Source: an uncultured bacterium (lineage in GTDB: Bacteria; Patescibacteriota; Andersenbacteria; UBA10190; CAIZMI01). Taken from it: a stretch of 64,000 bases of DNA. How positions within the stretch are numbered: position 1 is the first letter of the stretch; each line of letters starts with the position of its first letter. The stretch is from contig CAIZMI010000021.1 of NCBI GenBank assembly GCA_903934015.1, positions 10,868 to 74,867 of the forward strand, given 5' to 3'. Both the position numbers and the translations under genes were made by a program. Under the pieces are notes generated by a model, which was not told the origin of the DNA, searched no databases, and worked only from the letters and a program-made list of their open reading frames with translations. Of this stretch, positions 6,301 through 10,400 are shown in pieces.

Positions 6301-7185
6301 ATGAAAATCTTTACAAAAACTTGTTTAACTGGCGTGTTGTTGTTATTCCCGGCGTTAGTGTGGGGCGCGCAGACAATGGTGCCGTATCCCGCAAGAAGTT
6401 TTAATATAGATTATGGCGGAGGATATACAGCGAATGTTACGATCAGCGGAAACATTAATTCGGCGAATATTAATTCAACGGTTTATAGTCAAACTGGTGG
6501 ATTTAATTTTAACGGTTTTTCTGCCGACACAACGGTATCAATTAAAGCAACGGGGTCCCCCTCATATTCTGGAGCAACAACTGCATATATAGCAGAGGGA
6601 ACTGGCACAAATAAAATGATCACGGAGAGAGTAGCGACGGATAAAAGTATTTTAAACACCACAGTTGGGGAAATTAGACAATTATCTAATCCACGGTTAA
6701 CCGTAAGACAGGCAACAGGAGAAACAAAAACAACTGGAATTGTTTCAGGGACAGAGTCATCTCGCCCTGCTTTTTTAGATCAACAGCCTGATCCGCCGTC
6801 GTCGAGTTACGGACAGCCTGGCGATAATAGTCAGTCCGCAAAAAGTCCTTCAGATACAGCGGGTGCCGGAGGGTCGGGTTCAGGCTCAAAACTCGTTCCA
6901 TGTGACGGCGCAGATTGTACGCTTGCTATGTTAAAACAAATGGGCGCGAATATTTATAATTATCTGGCCGGTTTTGGGGCGATTTTGGCGGTAGGAGCGA
7001 TTGTATTGGCCGGTTTTTCATACATCAAATCCGGTGGGGACCCATCTGCGATGAAAGAAGCAAAACAGAAGATTGTTTATGCAATAACAGGCTTGATAAT
7101 TTTGGGCGCCTCAGTATTAATTGTAAACACGGTCCTGAAAGTGTTTGAACCGAAAACATTTCAAAAAGTGGAAGATGTTAAATAA
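6301..7185 (+). CDS. secreted protein with a C-terminal VirB2/TrbC-like pilin domain (large relative of the downstream paralog array)
   Basis: It has a Sec signal peptide. The C-terminal 90 aa (YLAGFGAILAVGAIVLAGFSYIKSGGDPSAMKEAKQKIVYAITGLIILGASVLIVN) share the two-helix motif of the seven downstream paralogs. Confidence 0.6.
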   Translation: MKIFTKTCLTGVLLLFPALVWGAQTMVPYPARSFNIDYGGGYTANVTISGNINSANINSTVYSQTGGFNFNGFSADTTVSIKATGSPSYSGATTAYIAEGTGTNKMITERVATDKSILNTTVGEIRQLSNPRLTVRQATGETKTTGIVSGTESSRPAFLDQQPDPPSSSYGQPGDNSQSAKSPSDTAGAGGSGSGSKLVPCDGADCTLAMLKQMGANIYNYLAGFGAILAVGAIVLAGFSYIKSGGDPSAMKEAKQKIVYAITGLIILGASVLIVNTVLKVFEPKTFQKVEDVK

Positions 7186-7360
7186 AAATAGTGATGCAAC
7201 GTCTTTTGCCAAATTTATTTAAACCCCTCTTAATCTCCCCTTATCGAAGGGGAGAAAACGCGACGATCTCCTCCCTTTATTCAAAGGATGCACATACATC
7301 GGCGGTGTTGACCTGAAGGTCTAAAGGCGGGGAGGGATTTCGTGAAAGATTGTTGCAAAA

Positions 7361-7389
7361 TTGACCGCATTACTTAAACAAAATATAAT
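7361..7389 (+). promoter_or_regulatory. sigma70-like promoter TTGACC-N17-TATAAT upstream of the pilin-like array
   Basis: The -35 ttgacc (7361-7366), a 17-nt spacer and the -10 tataat (7384-7389) are near-consensus. They lie 11 nt upstream of the ATG at 7400. Confidence 0.5.
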
Positions 7390-7399
7390 TCACTTAAAG

Positions 7400-7780
7400 A
7401 TGATAACAAAAAACAAAATCGTTCTCGGGGTGCAAATGCTGATGTTGTCGGGGTTGGGTTTCGCGCAACTGGCTTTCGCGCAAGGAAGTGGCGGTATTCA
7501 AAATCCGATAAATGTTAATAGTTTGGAGGATCTTATTGCCAAAATTGTTAAGTACGCTCTTGGTCTTACAGCGGTATTGGCGGTTGCCTATATCGTTTAT
7601 GGTGGTTTTCTTTACATTTCTTCCGCGGGTGATGAGTCTCAACTAAAAGCCGGCAAGCAAGCAATTATCGGCGCGGTGATAGGGATTATCGTTATCGGTT
7701 TAGCATATGCGTTAGTGGAATTTGTTGTTAACGCCATGGGTGGTGGGGGTGGAGCTAATGGTGGAAATCTAAGAGGATGA
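7400..7780 (+). CDS. VirB2/TrbC-like (T4SS-pilin-like) small secreted two-helix protein, paralog 1
   Basis: It has a signal peptide, the YGGFLYISSAGDESQLKAGKQAII motif and a Gly-rich tail GGGGGANGGNLRG. The ORF-track start at 7361 is a TTG that overlaps the predicted promoter, so the ATG at 7400 is preferred. Confidence 0.65.
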   Translation: MITKNKIVLGVQMLMLSGLGFAQLAFAQGSGGIQNPINVNSLEDLIAKIVKYALGLTAVLAVAYIVYGGFLYISSAGDESQLKAGKQAIIGAVIGIIVIGLAYALVEFVVNAMGGGGGANGGNLRG

Positions 7781-8163
7781 AAAATAACATTAACAAATTG
7801 TGTATAGTAATTTTGGCTGTATTTTTTCCAGTGTTTGTATTTGCCGCAGATCTTGGTCTTGATAAAGCGGAAGGAATCGGTCTACAAGGCGGACTTGAAG
7901 AGATGATCGCAAATATTGTTAAAACAGCCTTAGGGCTCGTTGGTGCCTTAGCATTAGCGTTTATTGTTTATGGCGGATTTTTGTATGTCACGGCAGCCGG
8001 GGATGAATCGCAAATTAAAAAAGGTAAAACTGTGATTATTTACGCGATTATTGGAATTATCGTTATTGGTGTGTCTTATGCTTTGGTGTCATTTGTTGTT
8101 GGAGCCTTTAGTGGTGGAGGAAGTGGTGGTGGGGGAGCTAATGGTGGAAATCTAAGAGGATGA
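7777..8163 (+). CDS. VirB2/TrbC-like pilin-family protein, paralog 2
   Basis: Its start overlaps the stop of paralog 1 (ATGA). It carries the same core motif, and its 3' end is nearly identical at the DNA level to that of paralog 1. Confidence 0.7.
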   Translation: MKNNINKLCIVILAVFFPVFVFAADLGLDKAEGIGLQGGLEEMIANIVKTALGLVGALALAFIVYGGFLYVTAAGDESQIKKGKTVIIYAIIGIIVIGVSYALVSFVVGAFSGGGSGGGGANGGNLRG

Positions 8164-8495
8164 AAAATATTGTAAAATTTGTGTCATTGATGAGCTCTTC
8201 TTTGTTCGCCTTATCCGCACAAGCACAACTCTCCAAACCTAAAAATCCCGGGTTACCTGATACACCTTTGCCTGCAATGATAATGCAGTTAGTAAATTAT
8301 GCGCTAGGTCTAGTCGGTGTTTTGGCTCTTGGTTTTATCGTCTACGGCGGTTTTCTCTACATCACCGCTCACGGTGATGATAAACAGGTTACTTCGGCAA
8401 AAGGGATAATAATTAACGCCGTAATTGGGATCGTCGTAATTGGTTTGGCGGCCGCGCTGGTCAATTTTATTGTGAAAGGGATGACCGGCGGATAA
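8160..8495 (+). CDS. VirB2/TrbC-like pilin-family protein, paralog 3
   Basis: Its start overlaps the stop of paralog 2. It contains the motif FIVYGGFLYITAHGDDKQVTSAKGIIINAVIGIVVIGLAAALVNF. Confidence 0.7.
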   Translation: MKNIVKFVSLMSSSLFALSAQAQLSKPKNPGLPDTPLPAMIMQLVNYALGLVGVLALGFIVYGGFLYITAHGDDKQVTSAKGIIINAVIGIVVIGLAAALVNFIVKGMTGG

Positions 8496-8507
8496 AAAAG
8501 CTTATCT

Positions 8508-8536
8508 TTGTCAAAAAAAATAATTTACGTTATAAT
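8508..8536 (+). promoter_or_regulatory. sigma70-like promoter TTGTCA-N17-TATAAT
   Basis: The -35 ttgtca is at 8508-8513 and the -10 tataat at 8531-8536, 18 nt upstream of the ATG at 8555. Confidence 0.45.
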
Positions 8537-8554
8537 AATCTCAATAAAACACAT

Positions 8555-9302: not shown

Positions 9303-9337
9303 GCAAAAATTCTGGAGGAAATGCAAACACAAAAAGT

Positions 9338-9368
9338 AAAAACACGCCCATAACGGGCGTGTTTTTTA
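9338..9368 (+). terminator. rho-independent terminator
   Basis: A GC stem (aacacgccc-ataa-gggcgtgtt) is followed by tttttt, 36 nt after the stop of paralog 5. Confidence 0.8.
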
Positions 9369-9390
9369 GTAGTCGTCATTTTTTTGTGAT

Positions 9391-9502
9391 AAACCCACCC
9401 CCGCCCTCCCTTACAAAGGGAGGGAATGCTTTAAGGAGAACGTATGCTTCAAGAACCGTTTCCTCCCCTTTGTAAGGGGAGGAACAAGGTGGGGTTTAGA
9501 TA
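9391..9502 (+). repeat. repeat family C: 112-bp imperfect palindromic element (aaacccacc...cctcccTTTgtaaggggagg...ggtggggttt), left copy flanking the DUF559 gene
   Basis: It is a near-identical direct repeat of 9891..10007. Shorter relatives occur at 7201..7335 and 60668..60705. Confidence 0.75.
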
Positions 9503-9517
9503 GTGTAAAATGCATAG

Positions 9518-9892
9518 GTGAAATCTCTCATAAAATATAGATCAGATCTAAAACAAAAAGCACGAAAACTGCGTCACGATTCCACTCCTGCGGAAAAATT
9601 CATTTGGATAAAAATCCTAAGAAACCGACAACTACTCGGTTATAAGTTTATCCGCCAGAAACCAATAGGGAATTTCGTCGTAGATTTTTTCTGCTCAAAA
9701 CTTAAATTGGCTATTGAAATAGACGGGCATACGCATGATATTGACAGTGAATACGACAAACAAAGAACAATACAACTAAACAGTTTAGGTATAGAGGTTG
9801 TCAGATATTCTAATTCTGATGTTCTGAAAAACATCGAAGGAGTTTATTGCGATTTAATGGAAAGAGTTAAGAATAATGAAAAATATTTCTAA
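9518..9892 (+). CDS. DUF559 (Vsr/endonuclease-like) domain protein
   Basis: The sequence PAEKFIWIKILRNRQLLGYKFIRQKPIGNFVVDFFCSKLKLAIEIDGHTHD...D..R...L...G..VVRYSN..V matches the DUF559 pattern (KF.RQ..IG.Y..DF.C....L.IE.DG..H). The stop TAA overlaps the first bases of the right-hand repeat. Confidence 0.7.
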   Translation: MKSLIKYRSDLKQKARKLRHDSTPAEKFIWIKILRNRQLLGYKFIRQKPIGNFVVDFFCSKLKLAIEIDGHTHDIDSEYDKQRTIQLNSLGIEVVRYSNSDVLKNIEGVYCDLMERVKNNEKYF

Positions 9893-10007
9893 ACCCACCC
9901 TAACCCTCTCCCCAGTCAAGCTGAGGACAGGCTCTTACAAAGGGAGGGAACTTTTCTAGAACCGTCTCCTCCCCTTTGTAAGGGGAGGAACAAGGTGGGG
10001 TTTAGAT
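9891..10007 (+). repeat. repeat family C, right copy flanking the DUF559 gene
   Basis: It is a direct repeat of 9391..9502 with the same aaacccaccc start and caaggtggggtttagata end. Confidence 0.75.
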
Positions 10008-10037
10008 ATTAATGGTGTTATACTATCAACAACCAAT

Positions 10038-10400
10038 ATGAAAAAAATAATAGCCTTCATCATTTATCTTTCGATATCCATTCCCTCGTTCGTTTCCGCT
10101 CAAGGTTTCGGTCAAGTGCCCGCGCCGATTAACATCGCCCCGCCGGCCGATTTTGGTACGTCAATATTAAATGTGATTAATTTCATTTTAGGTTTAATCG
10201 GAATAATTGCCTTCGCTTTTTTTATTTTCGGGGTTTTTCGTTATATCACGGCGGGAGGCAATGAAGATCAATTAGCCGAATCAAAGGGGACAATGACAAG
10301 TGCTTTATTTGGGGTATTGATAATGGGTGTGTCGGCTACGCTGATTAACTTTGTGGTCGGTCTTGTTACCGGCACTATTGGCGGAGGAAGCAGGTTTTAG
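10038..10400 (+). CDS. VirB2/TrbC-like pilin-family protein, paralog 6
   Basis: It has a signal peptide and the core FIFGVFRYITAGGNEDQLAESKGTMTSALFGVLIMGVSATLINF. An extended -10 (tgttatact) lies upstream. Confidence 0.65.
   Translation: MKKIIAFIIYLSISIPSFVSAQGFGQVPAPINIAPPADFGTSILNVINFILGLIGIIAFAFFIFGVFRYITAGGNEDQLAESKGTMTSALFGVLIMGVSATLINFVVGLVTGTIGGGSRF

Follow-up and report, generated by a model that had tools for sequence, protein, structure and literature searches.

The window, the whole 64-kb stretch of DNA that was analysed, carries a tandem array of seven pilin genes on the plus strand. The first encodes a protein of 294 aa, and the other six (p1 to p6) encode small proteins of 111-128 aa (Table 1). 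In Pfam profile searches, all seven proteins passed the cut-off of T4SS_pilin (PF18895, 26.6 bits). Only p5 also passed the cut-off of TrbC/VirB2 (PF04956, 27.9 bits), and five further members matched this family below the cut-off. The class III prepilin motif G/FTLIE was absent from all seven. These results agree with an earlier note on this DNA, which had assigned the proteins to the VirB2/TrbC-like T4SS pilins and not to the type IV pilins. The earlier note had counted eight pilins, but one ORF inside the run (9518-9892) encodes a DUF559 protein, which leaves seven. The start codons of p1 and p5 were corrected to positions inside the longest ORF (7400, ATG; 8946, GTG after GGAGGAGG), and the corrected starts match independent gene calls on identical contigs, in which p1 also has 126 aa.

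Table 1. Features of the pilin array and its surroundings (positions in the window)
Feature	Position	Strand	Evidence or detail
Orphan sugar-type solute-binding protein (SBP), SBP_bac_1/SBP_bac_8	4903-6288	+	PF01547, E 1.9e-33
Large first pilin, 294 aa	6301-7185	+	PF18895, 35.3 bits
Promoter-like TTGACC-17-TATAAT, upstream of p1	7361-7389	+	11/12 positions match
Small pilin p1, 126 aa, tail ...GGANGGNLRG	7400-7780	+	PF18895, 44.7 bits
47-nt repeat	7740-7786 / 8123-8169		96% identical
30-mer in the 47-nt repeat	7751-7780 / 8134-8163		two copies
Small pilin p2, 128 aa, tail same as p1	7777-8163	+	PF18895, 46.1 bits
ATGA overlap, p1/p2	7777-7780
Small pilin p3, 111 aa	8160-8495	+	PF18895, 56.0 bits; TrbC, 25.5 bits
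ATGA overlap, p2/p3	8160-8163
Promoter-like TTGTCA-17-TATAAT, upstream of p4	8508-8536	+	11/12 positions match
Small pilin p4, 116 aa	8555-8905	+	PF18895, 52.7 bits
Small pilin p5, 118 aa, GTG start	8946-9302	+	PF18895, 44.2 bits; PF04956, 30.2 bits
Terminator-like hairpin after p5	9338-9366	.	13 base pairs
Inserted DUF559 cassette, not pilin	9390-10008	+	DUF559 ORF 9518-9892, PF04480, E 1.1e-33
Palindromic element flanking the DUF559 ORF	9390-9502 / 9890-10008		two copies, ~115 nt
Direct repeats of the cassette	9448-9502 / 9954-10008		55 nt, 96%
Small pilin p6, 120 aa	10038-10400	+	PF18895, 30.4 bits
Terminator-like hairpin after p6	10427-10448

As the earlier note had described, a C-terminal two-helix module is common to the run of plus-strand genes (consensus ...NIVNYALGLVGVLALAFIVYGGFLYITAxGDDxQxxxAKxxIINAVIGIVVIGxAAALVNFVV), and its 182-nt DNA core is found in five in-register copies with 61-78% identity. 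The most divergent member is p6, while p4 and p3 share 62% identity overall and 70% in the core. In all seven proteins the N-terminus is basic, and a hydrophobic segment and a small-x-small motif follow it. An AF2 model of p3 (pLDDT 71.8) has a signal helix at residues 2-22 and a hairpin at 37-69/74-108. Hydropathy and the hairpin model are consistent with a VirB2-type topology; in fold searches the VirB2 hairpin was not distinguishable from any other helical hairpin, and sequence searches against solved pilins gave no match.

In the large first pilin, a signal peptide is followed by an Asn/Ser/Thr/Gly-rich ectodomain of variable sequence (about residues 24-147). A Pro/Ser/Gly linker and an LVPC-x-G-x-x-C motif then lead to the two-helix module (about residues 208-281). 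Its AF2 model, of low confidence (pLDDT 51.5), is beta-rich at 26-146, disordered at 148-206 and a helical hairpin at 208-281. Only seven homologs were found, and the ectodomain can be aligned in only two or three of these, being barely alignable even with the sister genus. The motif and its cysteines C201 and C206 are invariant among the homologs.

Together with the SBP gene upstream, the array genes make up three or four transcription units. One holds the SBP gene and the gene of the large pilin, one holds p1-p2-p3, which are translationally coupled through ATGA overlaps, one holds p4-p5, and p6 stands as its own unit downstream of the inserted DUF559 cassette. The overlaps of the first three paralogs had been reported in the earlier note, as had near-consensus sigma70 promoters before p1 and p4; both are present, and the two promoter-like sequences are the best sigma70-like sites in a scan of positions 4000-10800. 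The identical 3' tails of p1 and p2, also noted before, correspond to the two copies of the 30-mer ggagctaatggtggaaatctaagaggatga. No further copy of the DUF559-cassette repeat was found in the 64-kb window, and the orthologous spacer in the sister genus lacks the cassette, measuring 118-148 nt versus 735 nt here.

The SBP gene, a neighbour that the earlier note had overlooked, stops 13 nt short of the first pilin gene. Among solved structures, the best relatives of its product are trehalose/maltose- and oligosaccharide-binding proteins. From its sequence the product is likely to be a lipoprotein: directly after the N-terminal hydrophobic segment comes a conserved G-x-G-C (G46, G48 and C49 conserved in 13 homologs). 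At about 33 of 79 related genome loci an SBP homolog immediately precedes the pilin array. Of 64 metagenome loci retrieved with the SBP alone as anchor, 62 have a pilin array downstream of the SBP; the array begins within 150 nt of it in 56 of these 62, and many of the SBP/pilin junctions are 4-nt overlaps. Most SBP-pilin loci have the synteny gyrA-methyltransferase-SBP-pilin. Among the 118 neighbour genes of 30 long related loci, ABC permease, ATPase and VirB4 are not in the 25 largest families listed.

All records of the 79 related genome loci were deposited as MAG or uncultured bacterium. The lineage named is Patescibacteria, except for 15 'uncultured Gammaproteobacteria', whose titles are likely to be mislabels, and a few given as 'bacterium' only. 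The CPR origin proposed in the earlier note is supported. Most of these loci contain arrays of 5-13 pilin genes, and at some other loci single ORFs fuse 2-8 pilin modules. In the sister genus the gene order is kept, and each paralog has a positional ortholog with 55-81% identity (GyrA 84%), the best conserved being p5 (81%); a p6 ortholog is present at two loci (L007 and L086). Positional orthologs in another genus exist for all the paralogs, so each is individually maintained. The p1/p2 tails are homogenised inside each genome and differ between genera, indicating that recombination between paralogs occurs. The recent duplication suggested in the earlier note applies at most to the 3' tails; the complete array is old.

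A scan of 49 ORFs across the 64-kb window detected no VirB4, VirD4 or other T4SS family, in agreement with the earlier note, and VirB4, VirB6 and VirD4 were also absent from the few known kilobases beyond the window. VirB4 was found within 10 kb at none of the about 33 SBP-linked genome loci, and within 6 kb at none of 80 SBP-anchored metagenome loci. These absences count against a T4SS pilus, and to our knowledge a tight SBP link is a trait of no characterised T4SS. Fused polytopic multi-pilin proteins are also awkward substrates for filament extraction. The earlier note had stressed that no secretion machinery lies nearby, but distance from virB4 is not unusual: of the 1948 assemblies in a survey of Patescibacteria, only 1135 had the pilin gene close to virB4 (Quinonero-Coronel et al. 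2025, PMC12102498), and entries in its Table S3 include VirB2 matches flagged as not near virB4. It is plausible that a T4SS is encoded at a distance from the array. Two SBP-type arrays from ABY1 (L042 and L024) belong to VirB4-positive genomes, and of seven Andersenbacteria genomes from the survey's Table S1, five are VirB4-positive. The closest reference genome in that survey (GCA_007376145.1, 1.03 Mb) was scored VirB4-negative.

We consider it probable that the locus is a chromosomal VirB2-like pilin array of a Patescibacteria (CPR) bacterium, of a kind known in the phylum, and that it works as follows. Sec would export each product and signal peptidase I would cleave it, leaving a membrane-held alpha-helical hairpin with its N- and C-termini outside and a short charged GD(D/E)xQ...AK loop inside. 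Judging from VirB2/TrbC homology and from the analogous essential pilin array of Southlakia epibionticum, the subunits might then be extracted by a monoderm VirB4/VirB6-type T4SS encoded elsewhere in the genome, and would assemble together into a single hetero-oligomeric pilus or stalk where the cell touches its host. The large first member, with its variable ectodomain and Cys-x4-Cys loop, may be a specialised subunit, either a tip/adhesin or an initiator. The co-transcribed orphan SBP lipoprotein might be an accessory part of the surface structure, acting in host glycan recognition or in assembly.

A T4SS-independent envelope module is a clearly less likely explanation. Here a Sec-assembled membrane complex with no need for VirB4 would consist of the SBP lipoprotein and the two-helix proteins; the SBP would capture host-derived sugar or oligosaccharide, and the hairpin proteins would be its membrane partner (conduit, receptor or signal transducer). 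The SBP-pilin adjacency, nearly obligate in both directions of search, suits such a complex, as do the overlapping junctions and the lack of ABC permease, ATPase and VirB4 among the largest neighbour families. SBP-linked and VirB4-linked loci are also mutually exclusive in our sample, the nearest reference genome is VirB4-negative, and fused proteins of 4-8 modules (8-16 helices) resemble polytopic membrane proteins. However, the proteins are clear homologs of arrays within Saccharibacteria T4SS clusters, where VirB4-linked arrays have the same general layout with six to seven pilin genes. Moreover, they match TrbC/VirB2 and a conjugative-element pilin-like family, VirB4 is encoded elsewhere in at least two SBP-type genomes, and transporter families matched only at noise level (e.g. 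DctQ, E 0.05-0.12).

Co-assembly of all paralogs is favoured over antigenic variation because the gene order is conserved, fused multi-pilin ORFs exist and the operons are tightly coupled. Antigenic or host-range variation, raised in the published survey (PMC12102498) and also in the earlier note, would make the paralogs alternative major subunits, with one or few used at once. The paralogs do differ most in their exposed N-terminal segments and C-terminal tails, and both the hardly alignable ectodomain and the recombination at the p1/p2 tails would fit a cassette of this type. We regard it as improbable: there are no more than two strong promoters for the coupled operons, there is no sign of invertible or silent cassettes, all paralogs are kept across genera, the fused ORFs point to modules acting together, and the whole array was reported to be essential in S. 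epibionticum. Much more improbable still is that these are unrelated small two-helix membrane proteins (holins, bacteriocin-immunity or phage coat-like proteins) that resemble pilins in composition only. One member faintly matches the phage coat protein Gp8 (E 0.39), but the PF18895 and TrbC/VirB2 matches, the lack of any holin or immunity family match, a gene context without phage or bacteriocin genes and the homologous arrays inside T4SS clusters of other Patescibacteria bring this reading close to refuted.

The array proteins resemble the diderm VirB2/TrbC/TraA pilins (PF04956) in having a leader, here predicted to be cleaved, and a pair of hydrophobic helices with a short charged loop between them. 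The diderm pilins are usually encoded by a single gene beside virB3/virB4; the host here is monoderm, and the array proteins have no sequence match to solved pilins. Six of the seven also matched NF045849, the Mbov_0395 family of 'pilin-like conjugal transfer protein' from Mycoplasma ICEs, and the alignments covered almost all of the 80-residue profile (E 7e-8 to 2e-5); this was the only NCBIfam family matched by six of seven. Since they scored 24-32 bits against a cut-off of 40, they are not members. The hosts of NF045849 are likewise monoderm, but it is a conjugative-element (ICE) family and not a chromosomal array. Type IV (T4P) pilins are also small secreted filament subunits, and CPR bacteria use T4P in host contact, but T4P pilins have a class III signal and a single N-terminal helix with a globular head, while the array proteins have two transmembrane helices. 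The SBP has the full SBP_bac_1 fold signature of MalE and the trehalose-maltose-binding proteins (PF01547). Unlike the SBPs of ABC importers, it has no adjacent permease or ATPase gene, none is among the largest neighbour families listed for the 30 long related loci, and its gene is joined operonically to pilin genes.

The VirB2 genes of Bartonella and Anaplasma phagocytophilum are likewise tandemly amplified and diverged. In these diderm intracellular animal pathogens antigenic variation is favoured and was proposed for the VirB2 paralogs (as cited in PMC12102498), whereas for the present array the coupled operons, the positional orthologs and the fused modules speak for co-assembly. The closest likeness is to the VirB2-like arrays of ultra-small Patescibacteria (CPR), which makes the array as such an ordinary find. 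The published survey lists 441 such arrays of 2-11 genes, some with a non-pilin gene inside, and a TM7x array was earlier named a 'Sec secreted array' (PMC12102498), a label that recalls the Sec-type leaders here. In co-cultures of Paceibacterales, the genes with the highest expression include those of T4SS pilins. The present array shares with the published ones PF18895, tandem divergent paralogs and a monoderm CPR host, and interruption by a non-pilin gene and location away from virB4 are both possible there. In S. epibionticum ML1 the essential six-pilin array lies in a T4SS cluster (SEML1_0006-0019; Wang et al. 2023, PMC10633639), while the array here is outside any such cluster. Its interrupting gene is a repeat-flanked DUF559 cassette, unlike those of the published arrays, and two paralog pairs reach 62% identity overall and 70% in the core versus a published within-array maximum of 54% (PMC12102498). 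No description of an SBP heading a pilin array was found in the literature searched, and the orphan sugar-binding lipoprotein at the array head, within the gyrA-methyltransferase-SBP-pilin neighbourhood that sets this locus apart from published Patescibacteria arrays, seems to be its sole undescribed feature.

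The plus strand holds eight ORFs between 6301 and 10400, and a C-terminal two-helix module is common to seven (see table). The earlier note had counted seven small paralogs plus one large relative, which is one too many, since one of the ORFs encodes a DUF559 protein. The array therefore has seven pilin genes, the large pilin and six small pilins (p1-p6, in gene order). Two gene starts were corrected in the coordinates that we give, and gene calls made independently on public contigs of identical sequence gave the same coordinates.

Genes and signals of the pilin array and its surroundings (positions in the window unless a locus is named)
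Feature	Position	Strand	Remarks
SBP gene	4903-6288	+	solute-binding protein, SBP_bac_1; ends 13 nt before large pilin
Large pilin	6301-7185	+	294 aa
Sigma70-like site	7361-7389		11/12 positions matched
p1	7400-7780	+	126 aa
p2	7777-8163	+	128 aa
p3	8160-8495	+	111 aa
Sigma70-like site	8508-8536		11/12 positions matched
p4	8555-8905	+	116 aa
p5	8946-9302	+	118 aa; GTG start after GGAGGAGG
Terminator-like hairpin	9338-9366		after p5
DUF559-flanking direct repeats	9448-9502 / 9954-10008		55 nt
DUF559 ORF	9518-9892	+	PF04480, E 1e-33; ~375 nt; between p5 and p6
p6	10038-10400	+	120 aa
Terminator-like hairpin	10427-10448		after p6
DUF559 cassettes of L042 (Magasanikbacteria locus)	12195-12755, 14038-14673, 17785-18311

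All seven proteins exceeded the curated gathering score of PF18895 (T4SS_pilin, 26.6 bits for the whole-protein HMM score). The large pilin scored 35.3 bits, and p1 to p6 scored 44.7, 46.1, 56.0, 52.7, 44.2, and 30.4 bits (range 30.4-56.0). For identical contigs in public data, precomputed Pfam assignments concur on PF18895. With PF04956 (TrbC/VirB2 pilin, gathering score 27.9 bits), p5 was above the cut-off (30.2 bits), p3 (25.5), the large pilin (24.2), p2 (18.6), and p4 (18.1) were below it, and p1 and p6 had no match. No holin or bacteriocin-immunity family was matched in Pfam or NCBIfam, and there was no phage or bacteriocin gene context in the window. Pfam matches to DctQ, AA_permease_2, and Gp8 (E 0.001-0.4, far below the cut-offs) were rejected as hydrophobic-helix noise. 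The family is very large, as a profile of the six small paralogs found 61,897 cluster representatives among 1.84 billion (E <= 1e-3). Among all PDB sequences, this profile found nothing meaningful (E 0.84). We regard the family assignment of the array as practically certain.

Every member carries 2-4 Lys/Arg in its first ten residues, then a hydrophobic stretch and a small-x-small motif, which in five of the seven is directly followed by Gln (e.g. AQA-Q, AFA-Q, AMA-Q). Two strong hydrophobic segments come after this leader in each member. The class III signal of type IV pilins (G/F(M)-T/S-L-I/L-E) was absent from the first 40 residues of all members. In the AlphaFold (AF2) model of p3 (pLDDT 71.8), a signal helix (2-22) precedes a hairpin (37-69/74-108). 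The predicted layout thus fits the VirB2 type, with a presumably cleaved leader, two hydrophobic helices, and a short charged loop. At the DNA level, the ATGA overlaps of p1/p2 and p2/p3 and the identical 30-mer in which both p1 and p2 end were confirmed, and the two best sigma70-like sites in 4000-10800 lie before p1 and p4, where promoters had been proposed. Neither the locus nor the DUF559-flanking repeats had an Rfam match that reached its gathering score, so no known RNA family was assigned.

Pfam scans of 49 ORFs across the 64 kb gave no VirB4, VirD4, VirB6, or other T4SS family, in agreement with the earlier note, and the known flanks of the window, with a 3' extension of ~3.4 kb, had no T4SS genes either. 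The scanned content includes GyrA, ClpB, PNPase, RecG, and other housekeeping genes as well as a chemotaxis cluster and a type I restriction system. The chemotaxis cluster (29467-37848) looks complete, with a dCache-MCP, three CheW-like proteins, a CheY/CheX-like regulator, CheB, and CheA, in an apparent CPR genome of ~1 Mb; the window showed no genes for flagella or type IV pili. The restriction-modification genes (44573-52768) consist of a partial hsdS followed by hsdM, hsdS, and hsdR, and a Bro-N domain gene (47960-48796) is inserted between hsdS and hsdR; a YgjP-like metallopeptidase gene comes after it. The region 26300-28100 is poor in ORFs and had no detectable Rfam family or tRNA, and G+C falls to its minimum for the window (35.5%) in 26001-28000.

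The gene directly upstream of the large pilin encodes a full SBP_bac_1 protein of the sugar/oligosaccharide type (PF01547, E 1.9e-33). It is probably a lipoprotein, because a conserved G-x-G-C follows its hydrophobic N-terminus and the window carries a signal peptidase II gene. No cognate permease or ATPase lies beside it, and its neighbors are methyltransferase and pilin genes. A degenerate-pattern scan for related loci, with one genome per species, gave 79 loci, all from MAG or uncultured-bacterium records. The named lineages are Patescibacteria (Parcubacteria, Saccharibacteria, Doudnabacteria, Magasanikbacteria, and others), except for 15 loci titled 'uncultured Gammaproteobacteria', which we read as mislabeled, and a few whose title just says 'bacterium'. 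Several metagenome assemblies hold contigs of the same strain, 100% identical to the window, and these offered no population variation. About 33 of the 79 pilin-anchored loci have a same-strand SBP homolog, which lies immediately upstream (gaps of -7 to +56 nt) or follows a first large pilin. VirB4 lies within 10 kb in ~20 other pilin-anchored loci, with no overlap with the SBP-bearing set.

As a reciprocal test, metagenomes were scanned with an alignment of 13 SBPs, which gave 80 loci (35-83% identity), 64 of them with at least 400 nt downstream of the SBP. A same-strand pilin gene was present downstream in 62 of these 64, starting within 150 nt in 56, and none of the 80 loci had VirB4 within 6 kb. 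Among 118 neighboring genes of the 30 longest SBP-anchored loci, GyrA occurred 28 times (28/30 loci), the methyltransferase 26 times (26/30), and a Lactamase_B_3 protein 19 times, at SBP identities of only 35-45%; BPD_transp, ABC_tran, and T4SS components were not among the 25 largest families of these neighbors. In the literature searchable here, neither the key array papers nor a full-text search mentioned a solute-binding protein with pilin arrays. This linkage is the only part of the locus that may be new. It gives one handle on these structures, namely a near-obligate operonic link of a sugar-type SBP lipoprotein with pilin arrays, in lineages where the array is far from virB4. If the link reflects function, the role of these structures would include host-glycan recognition or uptake.

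The window shares the order gyrA, methyltransferase, SBP, large pilin, small pilins with its closest relatives, the sister-genus loci L007 and L086 and the locus L008, whose GyrA proteins are 84% (L007/L086) and 67% (L008) identical to that of the window. In L005, another related locus with GyrA at 67%, gyrA is followed by large and small pilins only, without an SBP homolog upstream. With Lactamase_B_3 before gyrA and a SAM methyltransferase after it, the SBP-array order is kept across very divergent Patescibacteria (window 467-6288; L086; L090-L169). Downstream of the window array, 10632-14000 has a G+C of 51-52% (42-45% around it) and encodes, on the minus strand, an SPFH/Band_7 protein and a membrane protein of 296 aa from no known family. 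Genes that match this segment in size, strand, and position, including Band_7, follow the array in L086, and therefore the segment is probably not a recent import. Band_7 recurs downstream in 7 of 30 related loci.

The window paralogs are 31% to 62% identical to p3, and core identity reaches 70% in the pairs p1/p2 and p3/p4. Their best matches to the sister genus fall on the diagonal (p1 57%, p2 55%, p3 59%, p4 57%, p5 81%, and p6 55%), and the large pilin matches at 55% over its C-terminus only. Identity is higher in the neighboring GyrA (84%) and SBP (71%). Since the matches are positional, the array and its gene order must predate the split of the two genera, with every paralog kept. At 55-81% protein identity between orthologs, synonymous sites would be saturated between the genera.

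The ends of p1 and p2 behave differently from the rest of these genes. The shared 30-mer sits in a 47-nt repeat (96% identity) that reaches into the start of the next gene (7740-7786 / 8123-8169). The tails are alike inside each genome and unlike between genomes (...NGGNLRG here, ...RGVL in L086, at 11200-11260 and 11570-11630). Identity is 28 of 30 over the last 30 nt and 8-22 of 30 in the remaining alignment. Judging from these sequences, the tails are under concerted evolution (gene conversion). Of 'recent duplication or gene conversion' as claimed before, gene conversion stands for the tails, and recent whole-gene duplication does not hold. The homogenization is limited to the final ~45 nt, which also carries the restart signal of the overlapping gene that follows.

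The large pilin forms its own subfamily, with an invariant LVPC-x-G-x-x-C motif right before the first helix, and a Cys motif is at the same position in the first pilin after the SBP in many related loci. Its ectodomain aligns in just two or three database proteins. The AF2 model (pLDDT 51.5, from seven sequences) has a beta-rich domain, a disordered linker, and a hairpin, and is too poor for more. Single ORFs that fuse 2-8 pilin modules were found in many database proteins, and a four-module fusion inside an SBP-headed array (L084, 2861-4021) was confirmed at the DNA level. Such fusions suggest that the paralogs co-assemble. ORFs of 2, 4, and up to 8 complete modules (L084 1700-2479 and 2861-4021; database proteins P0009, P0014, and P0020) have no signal peptides between the modules, and this type makes up many of the top matches of the family-wide pilin search. 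A fused 'polypilin' raises the question of how a polytopic protein gets extracted into a filament.

The DUF559 gene looks like part of a small mobile cassette with no relation to pilin function. Each flanking 55-nt repeat is the right half of a ~115-nt palindromic element, and no further copy of the repeat was found in the window. Across the cassette (9390-10008), the direct repeats are ~500 nt apart, and each contains a GC-rich hairpin (CCTCCCCTTTGTAAGGGGAGG then AACAAGGTGGGGTTTAGA). In the sister genus, the p5-p6 spacer is 118-148 nt and has no DUF559 gene. Three DUF559 genes occur in the distant Magasanikbacteria locus L042, where two of the three separate pilin genes. Each has comparable hairpin-bearing repeats ~500 nt apart on its flanks, and the hairpin stems there differ by compensatory changes. 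CPR genomes may carry the unit as a small mobile or homing cassette.

We propose that VirB2-type subunits would be exported by Sec and then held in the membrane as hairpins, and that a monoderm-type VirB4/VirB6 machine, encoded elsewhere in the genome, would carry out the assembly. Polymerization is predicted to give, where the cell contacts its host, one hetero-oligomeric pilus or stalk, in which the large Cys-loop member would be a specialized subunit and the SBP lipoprotein an accessory. Taken as a whole, we consider this chain from Sec export to a pilus with an SBP accessory fairly probable. We favor that all paralogs take part in one structure because the operons are coupled, orthology is positional, and natural fusions exist. 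The same features argue against antigenic variation, raised in the earlier note, in which the paralogs would be used one at a time, and we think it very unlikely. A conserved gene order with a distinct Cys-loop first subunit, together with the natural fusions, points to a hetero-oligomer of defined composition and not to interchangeable variants. Both the gene order with its first subunit and the pilin-module fusions are further handles on these structures. That the proteins are unrelated small membrane proteins is extremely improbable, all seven having passed the PF18895 cut-off.

The main rival is that SBP-headed arrays need no T4SS and form a membrane or surface module tied to sugar binding, which seems rather unlikely to us. 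In favor of a T4SS elsewhere in the genome, among the entries examined in Table S1 of the published survey, the VirB4-positive genomes include those of L042 and L024 (class ABY1), which both have SBP-type arrays, and 5 of 7 Andersenbacteria entries. Against it, the nearest listed genome, that of L005 (1.03 Mb, class Andersenbacteria), is VirB4-negative in the published scoring (PMC12102498). In a VirB4 profile search, the best 120 of more than 7681 matches included none on the 1.02-Mb contig of the sister genome (L086; Ga0247854_1000003 of JGI 3300022664, 1,017,687 bp, with the array at ~989 kb). It is unlikely that SBP-headed arrays, which make up a large share of the PF18895 arrays outside the Saccharibacteria-type, VirB4-linked loci, are not T4SS pili at all but a separate Sec-assembled surface or membrane module. 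There, a fixed set of VirB2-derived hairpin subunits would have an orphan sugar-binding lipoprotein as direct partner, for example in host-glycan capture or sensing without an ABC transporter or VirB4. If true, a T4SS-free SBP-pilin module would be a new use for both protein families.

In Paceibacterales co-cultures, T4SS pilins belong to the genes of unknown function with the highest expression, and PF18895 is reported to be the Pfam domain found most often in protein clusters specific to freshwater. In Southlakia epibionticum, the pilin genes of the T4SS cluster are essential (Wang et al. 2023, PMC10633639). VirB2-like arrays are among the few envelope features that a cultivated CPR bacterium has been shown to depend on for living as an epibiont. 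A survey that applied PF18895 and PF04956 to 3,035 genomes of Patescibacteria (Quinonero-Coronel et al. 2025, PMC12102498) defined arrays as 2-11 such genes, in tandem or split by one non-pilin gene, with a mean identity of 25% (maximum 54%) among members of one array. The window array, with seven pilin genes and one DUF559 gene interposed, falls under this definition. Therefore, its kind is already published and ordinary for Patescibacteria, with nothing new in kind: the observation in the earlier note was real and the family right, whereas the gene count and the novelty did not hold. Being far from virB4 is also common in published arrays, as virB4 was near a pilin gene in 1135 of 1948 assemblies and VirB2 matches flagged as not near virB4 appear in Table S3 (PMC12102498).

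The survey leaves open whether VirB2-like pilins are native to monoderm-type T4SS or were co-opted from diderm systems (PMC12102498). NF045849, the 'Mbov_0395 family pilin-like conjugal transfer protein' of Mycoplasma ICEs, is the only NCBIfam family with matches to six of the seven window pilins, covering nearly the whole profile under the cut-off. Mycoplasma ICEs are elements of monoderms, and this is the nearest curated NCBI family to the window pilins. The sub-threshold sequence similarity hints at a monoderm relative.
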